A DNA stretch of 64,000 nt from the NCBI GenBank assembly GCA_905235375.1, contig CAJOLH010000003.1, forward strand, positions 85,268 through 149,267, written 5' to 3'. Source of the DNA: an uncultured Bacteroidales bacterium (lineage in GTDB: Bacteria; Bacteroidota; Bacteroidia; Bacteroidales; UBA3663). The translations under genes and the position numbers were made by a program. Position 1 is the first letter of the stretch. Every line of letters starts with the position of its first letter. This document shows positions 6,504 to 46,769 of this stretch, in pieces. The notes below the pieces were generated by a model that saw only the letters and a program-made list of their open reading frames with translations, searched no databases and was not told where the DNA came from.

Positions 6504-6560
6504 AAGATGTAATTCCGTTTCGCTGTTTTCGTTGTTTTCGGAATTAAAATAATAATCGTG

Positions 6561-8096
6561 ATGAAAATAATCAACCGCTCCATCCTTTTCGTGCTTGCTT
6601 TGGGCAGCCTGCTCCTGATGTCTTCATGTCGTCGGGCAGGTTCGACCAATGCCAAGGTGACGTACGATTATCCCGCAACCCTCACCGAAGCGCAGCTCCT
6701 TGCCAATCCGAATCTTTTAGGTGGCATTTATGCGGCTTATCCTGGCGCATCCGAAGAGAGTCTTACTCCCGTTCCCTATGGCTACGAAGCCTTCTACATC
6801 AGCCACTACAATCGTCACGGCTCGCGTTACCAGCCCAACGACAGCCGTTATGCCAACACGCTGAAGCGGCTTCAGGACGGACATCAGCGCGGCGTACTCA
6901 CCGAATATGGCGAATCGCTCCTCCCTCGCATCCAGCTGCTATGCGACTCCTGCTTAGGGCATGGAGGGCAGCTCAGTTCAGTGGGTGTGGAACAACTCGT
7001 CGGCATCGGAGCACGAATGGGGCGCAATTTCCGCGAAGTCTTTGCCCAGACCATACCCGAAGACAAAACTGCTCCCGAGACAAAACGCCGCAAATTCGTC
7101 AGTGCTCGCGCCAGTGTCGTGCCACGTTGTGGAGCCTCGATGCGCGCTTTCTGTGCAGGTTTGGAATCGACTTACTTCGATTGTTTCCCTGCCCTTGAAC
7201 CCAATGCCGTAGTCAAGACCGACAGCGCTGATATGGCCTACATTGCTTACGACAGTCCCGAAATGAAAGCACTCAGCAGCCGAAATGCCTCCTGGCAGCA
7301 AGATTATGACAAATTCAAGGTGGAGCACGTCAATCGCGACCGTTTCATCCAGGCCATCTTCAAGGATGCTACAGGTGTCGATACCTTGAACATGGCAATC
7401 GACCTCTACTGGCTCGTCGTGGGTATGCAGGATGTCGATGTGCCGGGGTGTGACCTGAGCGATGTCTTCACGCCCGAGGAACTTCTTCAGTGCTACCAAT
7501 GCGTCAACTACCGCATGTATATCTGCAATGCCAACTGCCCCCGCAGCAACAACATTCCAGCCCAAAGTGCCTCTACCCTATTGAGGAATATCATCGAAAG
7601 CGCCGATGCCGCCATCGCCACCGATACCATCGCCGCGCATCTTCGCTTCGGTCACGACAGCAACCTCCTGCGCCTCCTCGCCCTGATGCACATCCACAAT
7701 GCCGCCAACAGCGAAAGCGATCCCTCAAAGTATTGGCAGGCATGGCAGGAATGTACCCTATCCCCAATGGCCGCGAATGTGCAACTCATCTTCTATCGCC
7801 CCTCAAACCCCTCAAACCCCTCAAACCCCTCAAACCTCTCAAACCCCTCAAACCCCTCAAACCTCTCAAACCCTTCAAACCCCTCAAGCCCTTCAAACCC
7901 TTCAAACCTCTCACCCCCCTCCACCCCTTCCCCCATCCTCGTCCGAATCCTCCTCAACGAACACGAGACCTTACTTGATGCCGACCTCCAGCCCACCGAT
8001 GGCTGTTTCTACCGATGGTCAGACCTCCGTTCCTTCTGGTCCACACAGATTGTGGATAACGGAGCAGATGGGATCGGAACGGTGAACATTCAGTAA
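6561..8096 (+). CDS. Histidine acid phosphatase (branch 2, MINPP-like), lipoprotein, carrying a PSN-repeat insertion
   Basis: RHGSRY catalytic motif and a downstream HD motif (RFGHDSNLL). Lipobox LLLMSSC. The ATG at 6561 was preferred to the GTG at 6558. Confidence 0.75.
   Translation: MKIINRSILFVLALGSLLLMSSCRRAGSTNAKVTYDYPATLTEAQLLANPNLLGGIYAAYPGASEESLTPVPYGYEAFYISHYNRHGSRYQPNDSRYANTLKRLQDGHQRGVLTEYGESLLPRIQLLCDSCLGHGGQLSSVGVEQLVGIGARMGRNFREVFAQTIPEDKTAPETKRRKFVSARASVVPRCGASMRAFCAGLESTYFDCFPALEPNAVVKTDSADMAYIAYDSPEMKALSSRNASWQQDYDKFKVEHVNRDRFIQAIFKDATGVDTLNMAIDLYWLVVGMQDVDVPGCDLSDVFTPEELLQCYQCVNYRMYICNANCPRSNNIPAQSASTLLRNIIESADAAIATDTIAAHLRFGHDSNLLRLLALMHIHNAANSESDPSKYWQAWQECTLSPMAANVQLIFYRPSNPSNPSNPSNLSNPSNPSNLSNPSNPSSPSNPSNLSPPSTPSPILVRILLNEHETLLDADLQPTDGCFYRWSDLRSFWSTQIVDNGADGIGTVNIQ
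7799..7917 (+). repeat. About 13 tandem 9-bp units (YYTCAAACC) in-frame in the phosphatase, encoding (P/L)SN repeats
   Basis: Direct reading: cccctcaaacccctcaaacc...cttcaaacctctcacccc. Translated as PSNPSNPSNPSNLSNPSNPSNLSNPSNPSSPSNPSNLSPP. Confidence 0.95.
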
Positions 8097-25098: not shown

Positions 25099-25118
25099 CA
25101 TGTCCCCGTGTCCCCTCC

Positions 25119-25176
25119 GCAGCCGTCCTTGGCTGTCCACTCCCCACCTGTCCCAGTCGCAGCCAAGTTTGGCTGC
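25119..25176 (+). repeat. Degenerate (GCAGCCGTCCTTGGCTG) plus exact (GCAGCCAAGTTTGGCTGC, 25159-25176) copies of the palindromic repeat, with GTCCCC flanks
   Basis: Direct reading. Confidence 0.85.
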
Positions 25177-25218
25177 AAAAAAATCCCCGAAAAATTTGCA
25201 TCTTTCCCCAAAATCCCC

Positions 25219-25226
25219 TATCTTTG
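25219..25226 (+). promoter_or_regulatory. Bacteroidota -7 box (TATCTTTG) for the PL1/CE8 gene
   Basis: Lies within the block AAAATCCCCTATCTTTGC (25210-25227), 45 nt upstream of the ATG at 25271. Confidence 0.55.
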
Positions 25227-25270
25227 CACCAGCTAATAAGCATTGTCAACTAACCACAACCCGCACCCCT

Positions 25271-28200
25271 ATGAAATCCACCCTTTTCTCCACCCTGCTC
25301 TCGGCCGTTGTCCTCCTGTGCACACTCTCAACGCCAGCCCTTGCCGAACGCCAGCTCGCCTTCCCCGGCGCCGAAGGCTACGGTCGCTACGTCACCGGCG
25401 GTCGTGGCGGCGAAGTCTGCTACGTCACCCGCAACGACGATTGCTCGGACAACAACCTCGTCGAAGGCACCCTCCGTTGGGCACTCAACCACGACAACGG
25501 CGGTCGTCCCCGCATCATTCTCTTCAACACCTCGGGCACCATCTACCTTGAGTCAAAGCTCAGGTTCCGCTTCCCCAACGTTTCCATCCTCGGCCAGTCG
25601 GCCCCCGGCGGAGGCATCTGCCTCACCGGCTACAACATGTATATCAACAACGACAACATCATCATCCGTTATGTGCGTTTCCGTGCCGGCGACATCCCCA
25701 ACAAGTCGATGACCGGCCTTGACATGGAGAACTGCGAAGGTGTCATCCTCGACCATTGCTCCATGACGTGGAGCATGGAGGAGTGCCTCACCGCCTACGA
25801 CAGCGACTCCACCACCGTCCAATGGTGCATCATCGGCGAAGGCCTCTACAACTCCAAGAACTCCAAGGGAGCACGTGCCTACGCCACCCAATGGGGAGGT
25901 GAGCACAGCACCATGCACCATACGCTCATCACCAACAGCCACTCGCGCGCCCCGCGCTTCAATGGCGTACGCTCCGTGTCGAACACCAAGGGCGAACACG
26001 ATTACCAGGTCGATTCTGAGTTTGCCAACAACGTCGTCTTCAACTGGAGCGGTGCTACCAACCAGTATGGTGGCGAATACGACAAGGCCACCGTTGAAGC
26101 CCCCGCATGGGCTAAGGATGACCCGGGCTACGATCGCGTATATCTCATCGGCAACTACTACCGCCCGGGTCCCGCCACGCAGCGCAACACCTCCAGCGCC
26201 CGCTACTGGTGTGCCCCCTCCACACCCTACGGCCAATGGTATCTTAGCGGAAACAAGTTCGAAGTGAACAGCCGTTGGGCACCCCAGAACAGCACCGTCT
26301 GGAGCGAAACCGAACTTAACAAGGTCAATGCCGACAACTACTACGGAGCCCAGTCGGGCAGCTCCAGCCGTGGCATCAACCTCACAGGCTCCAACTTCAC
26401 TACCTACACCCTCACCGAACTTCCATACGCCCTCAGCGGTCTCGAATATGAAAGTGCCGACGAAGCCTTTGCGAAAGTCACCAGCCGCGCCGGTGCATCC
26501 CTGCCGCGCTACGATGAGGTCGATCAGCGACTCCTCGACGAAGCCGCAGGCCGCATCGATCCGCAGTATGCCGGTGCTTCCATCCCCAACGAGAAAGGCA
26601 TCATCGATGCACCCGACGACGTCCAGCTCACCGAGCACGACACCTACGTCGTCGATGGTGTCACCTACACCAACTTCCCCTTCCTCGGGATGCGCGAGGG
26701 CGACCGCTACATCATCGATGCTGATTGCGACGGAATGCCCAACGCCTACGAGGACGAGATGGGCTTCAACAAGAACGACCCCACCGATGGCGCAGCCCTT
26801 GCTGCCAATGGCTACACCAACGTTGAGAACTACCTCAACGGCATTGCCGATGGCACTCTCCAGAAGTCGCGCTACGAGACCTCCGACTACGCCATCACAC
26901 CCGGCCATGACATGACCGGCGACGTCCACTACACATTCACCACAGGTCGCGCCGACGGCGAAGCGCCCCAAGGCGGCACCCTGCCCTTCGCCTCGCAGTA
27001 CGTCATTCCACAGAACACCTCCCTCTACCTCGATGGATACACGCTCATCGGCTGGACCAGCCAGGGAAAGACCTATTACATCGGCGATGTCGTCACTCTC
27101 GTCGAGGACATGACCTTCGCGCCCGTCTTCCAGAAGAACACCATCTCGATCGACGACCGTCGCCACGACACCCGCTGGACGTGGGACTTCACCCTACCTG
27201 CCGCCCCTAAGCTAAATGCAGAGGACGAAGGCATCTACGTCAATCAGAACGAGGTCGAAGGCATCTCCATCGACACCTATATCGAATATTCAGGCACCCG
27301 CGTCACCCTGCCCTTTCGCACAGGAGCCACAGCCTTTGTCAACGACACCAAGGTCGAATCCGATGTAAGCCCCGACTCCACCCTAGCCTTTATCACAGTG
27401 CCTACCGATGTCGCCCTACGCACCATCACGGTCCTCTTTCCCTACGTTGAGCCCTCCCATGCCCAATCGGGCAGCGTCACCATCAGCTGGCCCTGGAACA
27501 CGGGAGCCTACGTAGCTGCTGCCACCTTCAGCGACGATGACTCCGCCCTTGCCTTCGCCTCAGCCACCGCCACCTACAACGAGAATTATCTCAGCTATAT
27601 GTCCAAGACCGACAAGGTCGATAAGGAGAACTGGGTAGCCTTCCAACCTGCCGAACAGATCTCGACACCCGACCCCAACTACGTGGTTGAGTTCCGCGTC
27701 ATCCCCGCCGCAGGCGTCAGCTTCACCCCCACGTCCGTCAGCCTCAATGCCATGCGTTTTGGCACCGACGGTGGCAAGCTCGACATCTACGCCGTCTATG
27801 GCGACGAGGAAGTGCTCCTCGACGAAGCCCTCGTCCCAGGTCGCGACAATGCCGGCAAGACCCCCATCTACCACGACCTCTCAAACCCTTCAAACCTCTC
27901 AAACCCTTCAAACCTCTCAAACCTTTCAACCCTTTCAAACCCATTCTCCCTCCGCATCTACATCTACAGCCTCGGCAACTCCAAGCAGGTAGGATTCAAC
28001 CACATCACCATCAACGGGGACTGGAGCGGCAGCTCCTCAGCCGAGCAGTATAGCGTCAGTGCCGAAGCCCTGCCCGCCGAAGGAGGCTCAGTGACCCTCT
28101 CTCCCGCAGGCGGTCTTTATCGCGAAGGCACGGTCATCACCCTCAAAGCCACGCCCAACGAAGGCTACAACTTCGTAGGCTGGACCGACGAGGATGAGAA

Positions 28201-29563
28201 CCTTGTCAGCAAAGATCCCTCCTTCGAACACACCGTCACCTCTGACGCCTACTTCTTCGCCAACTTCAAGGCTTACAGCGCCTACGACGAGATCTTCGAG
28301 CACTGCCGTCCCTTCGATGCCGCAGTCCGTACCATCGACGAGCTTCTTGTCGCCCTCGATGCAGCAGCCAAGCGGCCCTCCCCCGACCAGCGCTATCGCA
28401 TCTTCCTTTTCGATGGCACCTACGACTTCGGCACCACTGCCCTCACCAAAGTGCCCGGCAACACCTCGCTCATCGGCGAAAGCATGGAGGGCGTGCTTCT
28501 CATGAACGATCCTGGCACCGTCACAAAGTACCAGGACGAGACGCCCGTGCTCTTCATCGACCAGAATCAGAACGGCGTCTATATGCAGGATCTCACCATC
28601 CGCCAGGCACGCGACTGGGACAGCGGCCGCTCCAAGGGCCAGGCCATCGCCCTGCGCCAGCGCGGCAAGCAGGCAATCTACAAGAACGTGCGTCTGCAGG
28701 GCGTGCAGGACACCTACTATCTCAACAAGGCCGATGCCACCGCCTACTTCGAGGATTGCGACATCGCCGGCGAAGTCGATTTCATCTATGGCGACGGCAC
28801 GATGTTCTTCCAACGCTGTACCCTCCGCCCCCTCAGTTCTGGAGCCTGCATCACCGCCCCCAACACCCAGCCCGCCTACAAGGGCATCGTCTTCGACCGC
28901 TGCACCATCGATGGTGCCGAAGGCTATCGTCTGGGGCGTCCGTGGGGCGACTCACCTGCCAGCACCTTCCTCCACACCACCATGCGCTCCCTGCCCAATG
29001 CCGCAGGTTGGGGCTCAATGACGTCAGGCCTCGTCGTTCGCTTCCATGAGTTCGACTCGTGCGATGCCGAAGGCAATCCGCTCGACCTCAGTGCTCGCTC
29101 CATCAGCGCCTGCAATGCCGCCGCTACCTCCGACCCCTGCGTCATCACCGAAGAGCAGGCTGCCGACTACACGCTCGACAAGGTGTTCCCCAACTGGTAC
29201 CCGCAGAGCTTCACCGTACAACTCAGCACCGAAATGGTAATCGCCGACCGCACGCTCACCTGGGAATGTCCCGACACGGCCTTAGGCTTCGTCGTATGCA
29301 AGGACGGTCATCCCGTAGCCTTCACCACTGACCTCTCCTACACCCTGCCCGACGATGACACCGCCAGCACTTATTCCCTGCGCGTCATCAACGAGATGGG
29401 CGGTCTTGGCCCAGCGTACAATGCCGTCACAGGCATTCGTCAGCTATTCACCGACCGCATCCCCACCGACACCCCCACCACCTTTCACAACCTCCTCGGC
29501 CAAAAAGTATCCTCCAATTACCGAGGGATTGTGATCAGCAGCAAGGGAATCATGATGAAATGA
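25271..29563 (+). CDS. Multidomain pectin-degrading enzyme (1430 aa): N-terminal PL1 pectate lyase, Ca-binding-like and Listeria-Bacteroides-type repeat domains, C-terminal CE8 pectin methylesterase, and a T9SS-like tail
   Basis: PL1 evidence: AFPGAEGYGRYVTGGRGG, DHCSMTWSMEE, HSRAPRFNGVR. CE8 evidence: GQAIALRQRG, LQGVQDTYYL, VDFIYGDG, YRLGRPWG. The GYNFVGWTDED and YTLIGWTSQG repeats are present. The C-terminus is FHNLLGQKVSSNYRGIVISSKGIMMK. The start is set at MKSTLFSTLLSAVVLLC. Confidence 0.88.
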   Translation: MKSTLFSTLLSAVVLLCTLSTPALAERQLAFPGAEGYGRYVTGGRGGEVCYVTRNDDCSDNNLVEGTLRWALNHDNGGRPRIILFNTSGTIYLESKLRFRFPNVSILGQSAPGGGICLTGYNMYINNDNIIIRYVRFRAGDIPNKSMTGLDMENCEGVILDHCSMTWSMEECLTAYDSDSTTVQWCIIGEGLYNSKNSKGARAYATQWGGEHSTMHHTLITNSHSRAPRFNGVRSVSNTKGEHDYQVDSEFANNVVFNWSGATNQYGGEYDKATVEAPAWAKDDPGYDRVYLIGNYYRPGPATQRNTSSARYWCAPSTPYGQWYLSGNKFEVNSRWAPQNSTVWSETELNKVNADNYYGAQSGSSSRGINLTGSNFTTYTLTELPYALSGLEYESADEAFAKVTSRAGASLPRYDEVDQRLLDEAAGRIDPQYAGASIPNEKGIIDAPDDVQLTEHDTYVVDGVTYTNFPFLGMREGDRYIIDADCDGMPNAYEDEMGFNKNDPTDGAALAANGYTNVENYLNGIADGTLQKSRYETSDYAITPGHDMTGDVHYTFTTGRADGEAPQGGTLPFASQYVIPQNTSLYLDGYTLIGWTSQGKTYYIGDVVTLVEDMTFAPVFQKNTISIDDRRHDTRWTWDFTLPAAPKLNAEDEGIYVNQNEVEGISIDTYIEYSGTRVTLPFRTGATAFVNDTKVESDVSPDSTLAFITVPTDVALRTITVLFPYVEPSHAQSGSVTISWPWNTGAYVAAATFSDDDSALAFASATATYNENYLSYMSKTDKVDKENWVAFQPAEQISTPDPNYVVEFRVIPAAGVSFTPTSVSLNAMRFGTDGGKLDIYAVYGDEEVLLDEALVPGRDNAGKTPIYHDLSNPSNLSNPSNLSNLSTLSNPFSLRIYIYSLGNSKQVGFNHITINGDWSGSSSAEQYSVSAEALPAEGGSVTLSPAGGLYREGTVITLKATPNEGYNFVGWTDEDENLVSKDPSFEHTVTSDAYFFANFKAYSAYDEIFEHCRPFDAAVRTIDELLVALDAAAKRPSPDQRYRIFLFDGTYDFGTTALTKVPGNTSLIGESMEGVLLMNDPGTVTKYQDETPVLFIDQNQNGVYMQDLTIRQARDWDSGRSKGQAIALRQRGKQAIYKNVRLQGVQDTYYLNKADATAYFEDCDIAGEVDFIYGDGTMFFQRCTLRPLSSGACITAPNTQPAYKGIVFDRCTIDGAEGYRLGRPWGDSPASTFLHTTMRSLPNAAGWGSMTSGLVVRFHEFDSCDAEGNPLDLSARSISACNAAATSDPCVITEEQAADYTLDKVFPNWYPQSFTVQLSTEMVIADRTLTWECPDTALGFVVCKDGHPVAFTTDLSYTLPDDDTASTYSLRVINEMGGLGPAYNAVTGIRQLFTDRIPTDTPTTFHNLLGQKVSSNYRGIVISSKGIMMK
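27879..27941 (+). repeat. Seven tandem 9-bp units (TCTCAAACC/CTTCAAACC) in-frame in the PL1/CE8 gene
   Basis: Direct reading. Encodes LSNPSNLSNPSNLSNLSTLSNP. It shares the identical 21-mer ACCTCTCAAACCCTTCAAACC with 7861-7881. Confidence 0.95.
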
Positions 29564-29887: not shown

Positions 29888-30330
29888 AGCACTCTGACGC
29901 GCAACAGAGTGCTTCCTCATTTTGCGCAAGCATCGCGACGGGCGACAGAGTGCTTGCTCCTATAGAATAGTGTACTCTGACGCGTGTCAGAGTGCTTGCT
30001 TCTACAGAATAGAGCATCGCGACGGGCGACAGAGTGCTTGCTCCTATAGAATAGTGTACTCTGATGCATGACAGAATGCTTGCTCCTACAGAATAGAGCA
30101 TCAGGACGCGCGGCAAAGTGCTTCCGCGATTAGATAGAGCATTCTGACGCGCGACAGAATGCTTACTCCTAAGGAATAGAATACTCTGACGCGCGACAGA
30201 GTGCTTGCTCCTACGGAATGAAGCATCACGACGCGCGACAGAGTGCTTCCGCGATTGGATAGAGCATTATGACGCGCGACAAAATGCTTGCTCCTACGGA
30301 ATAAAGCATTATGACGCGCGACAGAGTGCT
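29888..30330. repeat. Tandem array of 11 degenerate 41-42-bp units, each carrying inverted arms (G[C/T]ACTCTG-ACGCGCGA-CAGAGTGC)
   Basis: CAGAGTGC-type arms start at 29905, 29946, 29988, 30030, 30072, 30114, 30155, 30197, 30239, 30280 and 30322. The sequence between the arms is also conserved. Confidence 0.9.
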
Positions 30331-32544: not shown

Positions 32545-32579
32545 AATTAACAATTAACGATTAACAATTAACAATTAAA
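32545..32579. repeat. Five tandem 7-bp units (AATTAAC)
   Basis: Direct reading: aattaac aattaac gattaac aattaac aattaaa. Confidence 0.8.
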
Positions 32580-36447: not shown

Positions 36448-36584
36448 GGGGAGGAGGATGAGGGGGTTAAGGGCAGCCAAACATGGCTGCCATGGGGACA
36501 AGGGGGGGGATGGAGTTGCGATGGCATCGCAACAGACGAAACGGGGAACGGGAGGAACGGGGAACGGGAGGGACGAAAGTGGGC
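36448..36584. repeat. Composite intergenic repeat: palindrome GGCAGCCAAACATGGCTGCC (36472-36491), palindrome GTTGCGATGGCATCGCAAC (36515-36533), and GGAACGGG direct repeats
   Basis: Direct reading. It fills the whole space between the CotH-like stop and the GT start. Confidence 0.85.
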
Positions 36585-45083: not shown

Positions 45084-46757
45084 TTATCGCTTCAGCCAAC
45101 GCTCTGGATTGACAGCATTGGCATTCTGATAGATCCAGAATCGGATCTCGGCTCGATTGCTTTCAGGTTCGGTCTTCAAGGTGCCCAGCTGCTGACGCGT
45201 TGAAACTTTCTGTCCAGCTCGAACAAAAACATTCTGCAAGTTCATATAAACCGAACGATAATTGCCGTGTTGCACAATGATGGTCCATTCCTCGCTCGTC
45301 TTGAAACAGCTTTGAACGACACCCTCGTAGATAGCGCAGGCGTGCGCTCCGACACGGGTGCTAAGCACGATGCTCGAGTTACCGCTGCTTGGATTATAAT
45401 GATCGACAAAAGCAAACGTGGCATCCAAGGGATAAGGCAACTTTCCACGATTATCGGCAAAGCTGCCCGACAACCTGCGGAAAGCATCGTCCTTCTTCAC
45501 CGTTGCTGAATTGTGGGTCGTATTTCTGGAGGGAACGGTGCCAGACGACTTTGAACTCGAAGCGCCACCCGTCGCGCCCTTCGATGCTGTAGCAGCACCC
45601 GTGCTCTTGTTCTCGCCAGCCTTTTTGGCAGCAGCTTCCTTACGTCGGGCTTCTTCCTCGGCTTTCTTGCGCGCCTCCTCAGCCTTGCGTATCTCTTCCT
45701 CAATCATACGTTGAATGGTCTTCTCCACCTCTGCCATTCGCTTGCGGTCGCGATCCAATTCGGACTGCAGTTCCTTGTTGTGCTTCTGCAGATTGGCAAT
45801 TTGTGCCTGCTGCTCCTGCTGTCGCTGGTCGAGCGAAGCACGTTCCTTCTCCAGATCCTGCAGGACGTTCTCATGGTCGGCACGAGCCTGTTCGAGCGCC
45901 TGTTTGGCCTCGGTGGTGGCATTGCGCTGCTCCAACAGCAGTTCGGCCTGTCCCTTGCGCCACTCTCCATAACGACGCAGATAACGAACACGTCGCATAC
46001 CCTCGAGCAAATCCCTGGCCGAAACGACAAAGAGCAGTTCATCATAACCGCTACGCCACTTATAGAGATGACGCATTGCTGCGGCATACTTCTTCTGCGT
46101 AGCATTGTGCAGTTTCTCGAGGTCACGAATCTCGCGACGCAGACTGTCCTCTTCGGCAACGATGGACTCTATCTCACGATGCTTGCTGTTGATGAGCGCC
46201 TGACGTTTACGTATCTCGTCGGCACGAATCTGGATATCACGATTCTGGCTCTTGAGCGAATTATTGTTGTTGCTGATGAGTTTCTCGGTATCCTTTATCT
46301 GTCGCTGCAGATCCCGCTGCTGCTTTTCGTAAGCCTGACGACTCATTGGCTTGCTTTTCTTCTTGCTGCTTGTCGAACTCTGCGAGCCCGTCCTCTTGGA
46401 GGAAGACTGCGAAGACTTCTTTGCCGTGCTCTGAGCAGGTTTCTTCTGCGTAGTTTGTGCAGGTTTCTTCTGTGTGGTCTGCGCGGGCTTCTTCTGCGTG
46501 GTCTGTGCAGGCTTTTTCTGTGTGGTCTGCGCGGGCTTTTTCTGCGTGGTCTGCGCGGGCTTCTTCTGCGTGGTCTGTGCGGGCTTCTTCTGCGTGGTCT
46601 GTGCGGGCTTCTTCTGCGTGGTCTGTGCGGGCTTCTTCTGCGTGGTAGTCTTCGTCGTTGTGGACTTCTGCTGAGCAAAACCGACAACACCATCGGGACC
46701 TGCCATCAGCAAGACCGAAAAGACAACGACCACAAAATATCGAAAGAAACGCTTCAT
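45084..46757 (-). CDS. M23-family peptidoglycan endopeptidase / EnvC-like protein with a coiled coil and a QKKPAQTT repeat tract
   Basis: Signal peptide, then 9 copies of QKKPAQTT, a long coiled coil, and a C-terminal LytM-like domain (GVVQSCF...IVQHGNYRSVYMNLQNVFVRAGQKVSTRQQLG). The ATG at 46757 was preferred to the GTG at 46766. Confidence 0.8.
   Translation of the reverse strand: MKRFFRYFVVVVFSVLLMAGPDGVVGFAQQKSTTTKTTTQKKPAQTTQKKPAQTTQKKPAQTTQKKPAQTTQKKPAQTTQKKPAQTTQKKPAQTTQKKPAQTTQKKPAQSTAKKSSQSSSKRTGSQSSTSSKKKSKPMSRQAYEKQQRDLQRQIKDTEKLISNNNNSLKSQNRDIQIRADEIRKRQALINSKHREIESIVAEEDSLRREIRDLEKLHNATQKKYAAAMRHLYKWRSGYDELLFVVSARDLLEGMRRVRYLRRYGEWRKGQAELLLEQRNATTEAKQALEQARADHENVLQDLEKERASLDQRQQEQQAQIANLQKHNKELQSELDRDRKRMAEVEKTIQRMIEEEIRKAEEARKKAEEEARRKEAAAKKAGENKSTGAATASKGATGGASSSKSSGTVPSRNTTHNSATVKKDDAFRRLSGSFADNRGKLPYPLDATFAFVDHYNPSSGNSSIVLSTRVGAHACAIYEGVVQSCFKTSEEWTIIVQHGNYRSVYMNLQNVFVRAGQKVSTRQQLGTLKTEPESNRAEIRFWIYQNANAVNPERWLKR
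46431..46646. repeat. Nine tandem 24-bp units encoding QKKPAQTT
   Basis: Direct reading. The units differ only at synonymous positions (CTGTGC/CTGCGC, GGG/AGG, CTTCTT/CTTTTT on the plus strand). Confidence 0.9.
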
Positions 46758-46769
46758 GGGGAACACGGC

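Follow-up and report, generated by a model that had tools for sequence, protein, structure and literature searches.

The closest known systems to the nonamer repeat reported here are the long simple-sequence repeats (LSSR), for example, the STRR heptamers of cyanobacteria and the TAACTGA repeats. The LSSR/VNTR loci of prokaryotes, reportedly described by Mrazek and colleagues in 2007, resemble the nonamer in comprising tandem units of 5-11 bp, in carrying the same motif at several loci per genome and in varying in copy number among close strains, for which slipped-strand mispairing has been invoked. In the present case, however, one nonamer is common to distant orders of a single phylum and turns up repeatedly in frame within enzyme genes, those with housekeeping roles among them. 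The STRR heptamers, which are said to go back to Mazel and colleagues in 1990, are likewise short tandem units dispersed at many, mostly intergenic sites and restricted to one phylum, but they have other sequences, are found in Cyanobacteria instead of Bacteroidota, and cannot expand in frame by a single 7-bp unit. The in-frame VNTR or contingency repeats of bacterial surface proteins also change protein length in frame through the repeat number and lie in exposed regions. They are usually gene-specific and longer, whereas the nonamer is common to non-coding DNA and unrelated cytoplasmic proteins and offers no on/off switch.

The TAACTGA direct repeats were found in marine Beggiatoaceae, Cyanobacteria, and five Bacteroidetes, with no transfer mechanism evident (MacGregor, 2015; PMC4679880). 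As with the nonamer, the same unit occurs in distant lineages, the arrays reach tens of copies in Bacteroidetes, some copies are intragenic, and other short repeats share the same intergenic regions; on the other hand, the heptamer has forward stop codons and, in the forward orientation, strongly favors positions immediately upstream of start codons (PMC4679880). The nonamer is open in five of the six frames, and its arrays have no fixed orientation to the neighboring genes as judged by a crude gene call. In Porphyromonas gingivalis, a minisatellite has been reported inside a MITE (PMC4596501), a case in which a tandem repeat of the Bacteroidota was dispersed by a vehicle acting on DNA; that minisatellite rides an element with inverted ends, while neither such ends nor conserved flanks accompany the nonamer arrays. 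Bacteroidota have a high density of STRs, coding sequence included (PMC12699852). Our literature search for the YYTCAAACC nonamer (repeat and peptide strings, nonamer-repeat terms, and STRR combined with Bacteroidetes) found no description of it.

The window, by which we mean the whole 64-kb stretch of DNA analyzed, contains two nonamer arrays, each lying in a gene for an enzyme, and the two enzymes are unrelated.

6558 to 8096, forward strand: phosphatase host gene, a histidine acid phosphatase (Pfam His_Phos_2, Minpp-like)
7799 to 7921, forward strand: nonamer array 1, about 13 units, mostly CCTCAAACC, with a degenerate 3' end, translated as PSNPSNPSNPSNLSNPSNPSNLSNPSNPSSPSNPSNLSPPS
25271 to 29563, forward strand: pectinase host gene, secreted and multidomain, with a pectate-lyase-like N-terminus, a beta-sandwich middle domain, a Flg_new_2 repeat, and a CE8 pectinesterase
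27437 to 28066, forward strand: middle domain of the pectinase, a predicted beta sandwich (CBM-like; AlphaFold2 model m226bf014a27d, pLDDT 91.3)
27879 to 27941, forward strand: nonamer array 2, seven YYTCAAACC units with an 18-bp super-unit TCTCAAACC-CTTCAAACC, translated as LSNPSNLSNPSNLSNLSTLSNP

Direct reading of array 2 gave the unit order TCTCAAACC CTTCAAACC TCTCAAACC CTTCAAACC TCTCAAACC TTTCAACCC TTTCAAACC. Tandem Repeats Finder detected both a period of 9 (7.3 copies, 80% matches, score 90) and a period of 18 (3.7 copies, 91% matches, score 113). The latter values indicate that the super-unit is real, and the seven alternating units of the original prediction are thereby confirmed. The units are contiguous and no spacer separates them, so that a CRISPR array was dismissed. 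Array 1, found with 13.7 copies by the same program, lies in frame in its ORF approximately 20 kb upstream of array 2, and the two arrays share the strand and the codon phase (CCC/CTC TCA AAC), as had been noted. When YYTCAAACCYYTCAAACC was searched for with up to two mismatches, all of the 18 matches in the window fell inside the two arrays (0.03 matches expected from shuffles). An Rfam search of the window returned no match, and no inverted repeats bracketing either array were found nearby.

The pectinase ORF spans 25100 to 29563 on the forward strand when delimited mechanically, but the true start is likely the signal peptide beginning with MKSTLF at 25271, and orthologues with lengths of 1415-1443 aa span 95-96% of this ORF. 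Pfam placed Flg_new_2 at residues 990-1058 and Pectinesterase at residues 1094-1309, while the N-terminal part matched the solved pectate lyase 9buj (E 6.7e-46). The predicted structure of the middle domain showed weak fold matches to CBM4/27/61-like modules. As originally proposed, array 2 is in frame within this beta-rich domain: its peptide, flanked by GKTPIYHD and FSLRIYIYSLGN, occupies residues 148-169 of the modeled fragment, a loop that joins the predicted strands 142-147 and 170-179 and over which the pLDDT falls to 74-76, and the loop is variable in the alignment of the orthologues. Array 1 encodes an insertion of approximately 40 aa in a beta-hairpin turn. In the AlphaFold2 model of the phosphatase (m488bc68165f6, pLDDT 88.7), residues of about 416-460 form a coil at pLDDT 48-54 between strands 407-415 and 461-466. 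Comparison with PDB structures related the protein to Minpp-type phosphatases, and the alignment with 7r5y breaks at query residues 417/458, which correspond to the adjacent chain residues 363/365, indicating a clean insertion. Both tracts thus lie inside domains, in loops between beta strands. This position and the use of one codon set set them apart from the protein-level low-complexity linkers (PT/ST boxes) of CAZymes.

The nonamer extends far beyond the window. An exact 26-mer of the repeat was found in six GTDB species genomes, all Bacteroidota, against a chance expectation of approximately 3e-4 in 596 Gb by our own arithmetic. These six loci include non-coding DNA, the xSN frame, and the opposite-strand FEG/FER frame. 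Scanning metagenomes recovered at least 120 loci with 152 arrays of 4-34 units each, and 123 of the 152 arrays (approximately 80%) were outside long ORFs. The two window loci are therefore not sole copies that resemble each other by chance, an outcome that the original prediction had set against its own interpretation. Coding arrays occupied five different frames on both strands, being read as LKP/FKP, SQT/PQT, FEG/FER, GLR, or xSN, so that the idea of one strand and phase for all intragenic copies does not hold; the xSN phase common to the window copies is unremarkable because it is the most frequent one. The genuine array-bearing ORFs include those for FolP, CarA, PurF, AroA, GH78-like and GH2-like enzymes, the linker of a two-component sensor, and a phosphoribosyltransferase; in CarA, the array adds 21 aa as a clean insertion when aligned with the E. 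coli protein. In a related contig, a GH2-like hydrolase is the third host, also in the xSN frame, and the three hosts of this lineage are secreted, glycan- or phosphate-scavenging enzymes. Secretion, which figured in the original prediction, thus applies to both hosts in the window but is no requirement, as the cytoplasmic FolP, CarA, PurF, and AroA carry arrays as well.

Regarding taxonomy, exact cluster look-ups labeled the neighbor of one metagenome locus (L039) as Bacteroidota and the host of another (L052) as Bacteroidales, and NCBIfam scans of the flanking ORFs recovered generic families only. A few loci appeared non-bacteroidotal, namely L043 (GC 0.21) and L023 and L089 (eukaryote-like ORFs). 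As most metagenome loci carry no taxonomic label, the designation of a Bacteroidota family rests on the six GTDB matches and a few labeled relatives. A protein-database search with a synthetic PSN/LSN peptide gave 17 matches, none better than E 0.02, under a HMMER low-complexity correction that suppresses such queries.

Several functional assignments were considered and rejected. The nonamer is no cyanobacterial STRR, as its 9-bp unit differs from the STRR1-3 heptamers and all labeled hosts are Bacteroidota. Neither is it a TAACTGA-type repeat: the unit is different and the orientation of neighboring genes is mixed, with 25 upstream-sense, 25 upstream-antisense, 15 downstream-sense, and 34 downstream-antisense cases within 150 bp, and no fixed position relative to start codons was found, both according to the crude gene caller. 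On its reverse strand, the repeat offers a TTTG in each 9-bp unit, and a distance of 27 bp fits the spacing of the -33/-7 promoter of Bacteroidetes; promoter mimicry was rejected on inspection of the sequence, since it has no TA that could form the -7 element. By inspection, the complementary strand has G-quadruplex potential in the CCTCAAACC and CTTCAAACC units but not in TCTCAAACC and TTTCAAACC, so that this potential is not the unifying property of the units. A role in RNA structure was discarded, as the sense RNA is predicted to be wholly unstructured (0 kcal/mol). A phase-variable contingency locus was also excluded: the unit length is divisible by three, the repeats sit mid-gene, every allele observed is in frame, and a 1-bp deletion in one relative (L134) is compensated later, yielding LQTFE.

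The comparison with orthologues, suggested by the original prediction, dated both tracts. They were present in the orthologues of 77-87% identity and absent from those of the sister species (71-75%) and from all more distant homologues, in which unrelated loops of 9-10 aa were found. This distribution suggests a recent gain, with both arrays placed on the same short branch. At the junctions, a loop of 7-9 codons was replaced, and neither target duplication nor clear microhomology was detected relative to the tract-less orthologues. Among relatives of at least 90% identity, the phosphatase loop ranged from 8 to 45 aa and the pectinase loop from 11 to 27 aa, mostly in 3-aa steps, and the loop of the GH2-like host measured 14, 17, 20, 23, 29, or 32 aa within 90%-identity clusters. 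On these comparisons between assemblies, the pattern is VNTR behavior. Unit variants were spread blockwise (TTTCGAACC three times in L139 and HSN three times in P0321). The orthologues retained the TCA AAC codons while the tract decayed, and not the divergent, non-repetitive codons that had been named as evidence to the contrary. Altogether, we assign the nonamer to the LSSR/VNTR class: a short unit is repeated head to tail far above chance, the copy number varies among close relatives in all three hosts, and the motif occurs at several unlinked loci in coding as well as non-coding DNA.

An origin of the arrays at the DNA level, as opposed to convergent protein evolution, is strongly supported by the sequences, because one rare Ser codon is used throughout and the same unit occurs in non-coding DNA, in other frames, and on the other strand; on this point the original prediction stands. 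We consider it probable that array 2 is one locus of a dispersed satellite (YYTCAAACC)n of variable length, which is driven by slippage and forms an inert spacer in the protein. The satellite would exist mainly as non-coding tandem arrays in Bacteroidota genomes, and copies would have taken hold in at least three genes in the ancestor of one narrow lineage of Bacteroidales, i.e., those for the pectinase, the histidine phosphatase, and the GH2-like hydrolase. Replication slippage or unequal exchange would then lengthen and shorten the arrays, and the reading frame survives such changes because the unit is 9 bp. Arrays would persist where the peptide falls in a surface loop or a linker; in the commonest frame this peptide is a hydrophilic P/L-S-N repeat with a G-free coding strand. 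In the protein, the tract is most likely an inert, disordered spacer, and its length polymorphism would be a by-product of DNA instability. Arrays that stop turning over would decay through point mutations and small indels. We infer that replication slippage is the mechanism of length change, that the tract is neutral in the protein, and that all loci share a common seeding process. Some room is left for selection, as the three hosts of this lineage are all secreted scavenging enzymes and all their arrays are in the xSN frame.

The seeding process itself may be active and sequence-specific, the work of a dedicated or semi-dedicated mechanism. Arrays already present could be copied through template switching or gene conversion while DNA is replicated or repaired, a polymerase or reverse transcriptase could synthesize new ones from a short template, or a very small mobile element could carry them. 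Such a process could account for the gain on one short branch of two arrays separated by 20 kb plus another at a different site, with the window arrays missing in the sister species, for the identical unit in genomes of GC 0.33-0.65 and distant Bacteroidota orders, for contigs with several arrays (e.g., in the adjacent CarA and PurF genes in different frames, and as an inverted pair within one ORF), and for the absence of a local proto-repeat in the tract-less orthologues. Nevertheless, we regard it as unlikely. Terminal inverted repeats, target duplications, and conserved flanks are all lacking, which speaks against a MITE or small transposable element, and no evidence was found for the tiny mobile element of the original prediction; across loci, the search for conserved non-repeat flanks found only further simple repeats or one locus assembled again. 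No candidate enzyme for seeding was identified in the window. The repeat is scarce on viral contigs, whose scan yielded five short arrays of 3-4 units each, located in unrelated contexts, and thus gives no hint that phages carry it. In addition, the arrays are neighbored by other, related short repeats, as ordinary satellite drift predicts. We give only a small chance to the stronger version, in which a sequence-specific process of Bacteroidota deposits (YYTCAAACC)n at breaks or stalled forks across the chromosome, coding regions included. The window tracts would then be datable traces left when this process was briefly active in a single Bacteroidales lineage of the rumen or gut. The deposition could be templated synthesis by a polymerase or reverse transcriptase of an unrecognized kind, or else a programmed switch of template to arrays already in place.

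Alternatively, the arrays may be kept as adaptive hypervariable loops, rapid length change in exposed loops of secreted or surface enzymes that degrade glycans being useful, e.g., for evading recognition by phages, antibodies, or proteases or for tuning substrate access, with the DNA repeat generating the variation. The extreme length polymorphism among near-identical proteins, the export of the three lineage hosts as enzymes of polysaccharide-utilization-type loci, and the position of the pectinase tract in a CBM-like domain are in line with this idea. However, the same arrays are found in the cytoplasmic housekeeping proteins named above and, for the most part, outside coding sequence, the gene persists in many alleles whose tract is decaying or almost gone (P0123, P0262, and P0302), and steps of 9 bp are unable to switch expression on or off. 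Adaptive maintenance is therefore improbable in our judgment.

It is very improbable that each array arose independently by on-site slippage of a chance duplication, with the shared unit reflecting mutational or compositional bias toward a C-rich, G-poor coding strand. The coding strand of the window is indeed C-rich (GC skew of -0.15 to -0.24 over 16-30 kb), CCC, CTC, and AAC are preferred codons in its genes, and both host loops are length-variable and of low complexity in other lineages as well. Nonetheless, TCA is rare here, accounting for 10.5% of the 854 Ser codons in the window genes, and the nonamer recurs in genomes of low as well as high GC, outside coding sequence, and on either strand, with the 26-mer shared by six other genomes far beyond the chance expectation.

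It is hardly credible that selection acted convergently on the proteins to produce Ser/Asn/Pro-rich linkers and that the likeness of the nucleotides is secondary. Both tracts are flexible hydrophilic loops, and S/T/A/P-rich insertions occur at the phosphatase loop of P0129, P0134, and P0149 in other lineages, but these insertions are non-repetitive. The single codon at the Ser position of the unit (TCA in 20 of 20), the reading of the same DNA in four other frames elsewhere, and the mostly untranslated copies effectively refute this explanation. Finally, an assembly or sequencing artifact deserves practically no weight, since, despite many matches from short-read metagenome assemblies with arrays often near contig ends, dozens of assemblies produced independently in different studies have the tracts at identical codon positions, where the variants are inherited and the reading frames intact.

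How identical short tandem repeats come to be dispersed along bacterial chromosomes has, to our knowledge, been a standing question ever since the STRR heptamers were described. The nonamer family is unusually tractable in this respect: it persists inside genes, tract-less orthologues date each intragenic gain, and the loop position of the tracts reports both DNA turnover and protein tolerance. The tracts inflate apparent protein diversity, splitting 90%-identity clusters, and the arrays break short-read assemblies, many lying where contigs end. For uncultured gut Bacteroidales, the tracts could also be of use as strain-typing markers.

The pectinase gene and the phosphatase gene of the window each harbor an array, i.e., a tandem run of the 9-bp unit YYTCAAACC (hereafter the nonamer), as follows.

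27879-27941, + strand: pectinase array, read directly as TCTCAAACC CTTCAAACC TCTCAAACC CTTCAAACC TCTCAAACC TTTCAACCC TTTCAAACC
7799-7921, + strand: phosphatase array, 13.7 copies, chiefly CCTCAAACC, by Tandem Repeats Finder

The in-frame repeat in the pectinase, on which the original prediction was built, was recovered by direct reading, Tandem Repeats Finder, and pattern match. Tandem Repeats Finder assigned 7.3 copies with 80% matches to a period of 9 and 3.7 copies with 91% matches to a period of 18, and the better fit of the latter indicates that the alternating super-unit is real. The array keeps the frame of ORF 25100-29563 (+; 1487 codons), and its peptide, LSNPSNLSNPSNLSNLSTLSNP, is flanked by GKTPIYHD and FSLRIYIYSLGN. 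The phosphatase array, of which the 3' end is degenerate, is in frame in ORF 6558-8096 (+). As had been predicted, the two arrays share one strand and one TCA-AAC phase (the xSN peptide frame). When two mismatches at most were allowed, an 18-mer pattern matched the window, the 64 kb of the source genome covered here, 18 times, always inside the two arrays (0.03 expected from shuffles). No inverted repeats bracket either array, and an Rfam search of the window gave no match. The sense strand of the arrays is almost G-free, its only G being located in the phosphatase array, and its predicted fold is 0 kcal/mol; in either host, this strand is the coding one. In positions 1-30000, where genes lie on the + strand, the GC skew has strongly negative values (-0.1 to -0.24), and in positions 30000-64000, where genes lie on the - strand, it is near zero, indicating that C is in excess on the coding strand and that the replication strand has an effect as well.

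In the pectinase ORF, Pfam identified a pectinesterase domain along with a Flg_new_2 repeat, and the N-terminal part of the ORF matched a solved pectate lyase (E 6.7e-46). The gene is located downstream of SusC/SusD genes and that of a DUF4957 protein, and is thus part of a polysaccharide-utilisation locus. The phosphatase belongs to His_Phos_2 and is a relative of Minpp-type phosphatases, with GH92, GH28-like, and acetyltransferase genes as neighbors. The nearest named relatives are MAG proteins of rumen or gut 'Bacteroidales bacterium'. The phosphatase was modelled by AlphaFold2 with confidence overall (pLDDT 88.7); its tract (approximately residues 416-460) is coil with a pLDDT of 48-54, lying between strands 407-415 and 461-466. 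The alignment with the solved phosphatase 7r5y splits at query residues 417/458, which correspond to adjacent chain residues 363/365; thus, the tract is a clean insertion of ~40 residues in a hairpin turn. The middle domain of the pectinase was predicted to be a beta sandwich (pLDDT 91.3 for the modelled fragment) with weak fold matches to carbohydrate-binding modules (TM-scores ~0.45-0.55), and the tract forms the loop that connects strands 142-147 and 170-179 in this fragment.

We compared loop lengths among proteins clustered at ≥90% identity. The loop ranged from 8 to 45 residues in the phosphatase and from 11 to 27 residues in the pectinase, mainly in 3-residue steps, and the longest phosphatase array among those compared was that of the window. 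Metagenome locus L052 encodes a 998-residue GH2-like protein that bears a third in-frame xSN array, and the cluster of this protein contains a MAG protein from the accession series of a pectinase orthologue. Loop lengths in this cluster were 14, 17, 20, 23, 29, and 32 residues, with an amplified HSN variant in one allele. This pattern is that of a variable-number tandem repeat (VNTR) and provides the strongest available support for slippage, which would alter the tract length and, with a unit of 9 bp, preserve the frame. The tract would be tolerated in the protein as a disordered spacer and is presumably neutral, albeit adaptive variation of the loop retains an appreciable probability.

Among pectinase orthologues, the loop is a decayed remnant, SLLNLSEPILTSLNNPEGGLPF, at 86-87% identity, SHPSNPSNSSNPSF at 83%, SNNSNLSNLQTFELSN... 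at 77%, and an unrelated 10-residue loop (TPRATNEPF) at 74-75% and beyond. Phosphatase orthologues of 79-84% identity bear xSN tracts of differing length, and those of 71-74% bear KIGATTEDE. The closest tract-less species for both genes came from one study (SRR151452xx; L135, L136, L140, and L141; GCA_024712465.1), with the gene order unchanged; therefore, both arrays were apparently gained on the same short branch, and we regard that they were probably gained together after the split from the tract-less species. We found no tract conserved in protein but scrambled in codons: the carriers L133, L134, and L137 retain TCA AAC, and L132 has decayed at the DNA and protein levels alike. L134 shows a 1-bp deletion followed by restoration of the frame, and L139 possesses three copies of a mutated unit, TTTCGAACC. 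The tract would decay once its turnover stops.

One exact 26-mer from the tract matched six GTDB species genomes, all of Bacteroidota (two Saprospiraceae, one Chitinophagaceae, one Chitinophagales, and two Bacteroidales), against ~3e-4 matches expected by chance in 596 Gb by our own arithmetic. The contexts were an ORF in the xSN frame, arrays that are apparently non-coding (including one of >16 units and another immediately 5' of a start codon), and opposite-strand insertions in the FEG/FER frame in a nitroreductase-like protein and a dihydropteroate synthase. A four-unit pattern retrieved at least 120 metagenome loci, and the matches listed comprised 152 arrays of 4-34 units on contigs with GC of 0.21-0.65. 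Among these matches, 123 arrays were outside long open frames and 29 were in open frames (note that the latter include some duplicates or repeat-only frames), read as xSN (14), LKP/FKP (6), SQT/PQT (5), FEG/FER (3), and GLR (1). Thus, a common strand and phase is not a rule of the family. Neither is a secreted host required, as the genuine hosts include FolP, CarA, PurF, and AroA, besides GH78-like and GH2-like enzymes, a hybrid two-component sensor linker, and a phosphoribosyltransferase. In L070:5416-8663 (metagenome contig JAEEGL012143714.1), the neighboring housekeeping genes CarA and PurF each carry an 8-unit array, in the LKP/FKP and SQT/PQT frames; the CarA tract, compared with E. coli CarA, is a clean insertion of 21 residues that immediately precedes the catalytic GICLGHQ active-site strand. 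The FolP insertion precedes DPGFGF. An 892-aa hydrolase-like ORF (L047:3976-6654) contains a head-to-head inverted array pair (FEKFER...PSNPSN) reading FEKFERFEKFEKF then PSNPTNPSNPSNPSNLSNPSNLSN; a third, non-coding array lies 1.1 kb downstream on this contig. A few metagenome loci look non-bacteroidotal, with taxonomy assigned for a minority of the loci.

The flanks of non-coding arrays often hold other short tandem repeats (GAACACG, AATTAACC, GAAACCC, CTTTAAACC, and CATCAAACC), and arrays inverted head to head occur there in some cases. Such mixtures are as expected for a drifting library of related satellites. No fixed orientation of the non-coding arrays to neighboring genes was found with a crude gene caller, and the repeat was hardly present in the viral contigs scanned. 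The independent loci compared shared no non-repeat flank, except a 47-bp left flank of 94% identity containing GATTTTGR repeats in L012:~960-1010 and L041:~370-420, of which the arrays are from one sample but in different gene contexts. A common seeding step may lie behind the nonamer loci, and active, sequence-specific seeding has an appreciable probability.

TCA accounts for 10.5% of 854 serine codons in 22 window genes but occupies the serine position in 20/20 nonamer units, and the nonamer elsewhere is untranslated or read in other frames. The DNA-level origin originally proposed is therefore upheld, and convergence at the protein level has no appreciable probability. The alternative that the window holds the only two copies was contradicted by the many further copies in GTDB and metagenomes. 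Independent local origin of the arrays and an artefact likewise carry no appreciable probability.

Other repeats were detected in the window, as listed below.

46416-46646, - strand gene 45084-46766: 24-bp unit in near-perfect tandem (9.6 copies; 88% matches), located in frame within the linker at the N-terminus of a Peptidase_M23 protein (about nine KKPAQTTQ units)
889-959: imperfect AATAACGG-type 8-bp repeats, ~9 copies, filling intergenic space and stopping 10 bp short of the GH92 gene ATG at 970
32545-32578: intergenic AATTAAC 7-bp repeat, 4.9 copies
29888-30330, 3' of the pectinase gene: 42-bp unit in ~10 tandem copies, every copy with a hairpin AGCACTCTG-loop-CAGAGTGCT; super-periods 83 and 125 bp
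36540-36575: short AACGGGG / AACGGGGAACGGGAGG repeat where convergent ORFs meet

The 24-bp repeat is a second in-frame VNTR, unrelated to the nonamer. The 42-bp stack looks like terminator-like stem-loops or a REP-like array. A unit akin to AATTAAC, AATTAACC, adjoins nonamer arrays in metagenome locus L036.

The closest known kinds to the nonamer arrays are prokaryotic long simple-sequence repeats and VNTRs, and the features tested among those that define a dispersed simple-sequence repeat and VNTR are shown by the nonamer. Cyanobacterial STRR heptamers and the TAACTGA direct repeats are also among the closest, but the nonamer does not share the defining features of either. The latter, described in Beggiatoaceae, Cyanobacteria, and five Bacteroidetes, form long arrays, are accompanied by heptamer repeats, rarely lie within genes, and show no evident mechanism of transfer (PMC4679880); the repeats at 889-959 resemble the start-codon-proximal heptamers of that study. 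Bacteroidota were recently surveyed to have a high short-tandem-repeat density, coding sequence included (PMC12699852). The defining features of a MITE, a contingency switch, a CRISPR array, or a protein-level linker were not found in the nonamer, and we found no published description of the motif. Altogether, the pectinase tract is best regarded as a single locus of a nonamer satellite dispersed in Bacteroidota, which would have settled in several genes of one Bacteroidales lineage, at loops that are permissive. The useful property of the nonamer is that its in-frame copies have datable gains.
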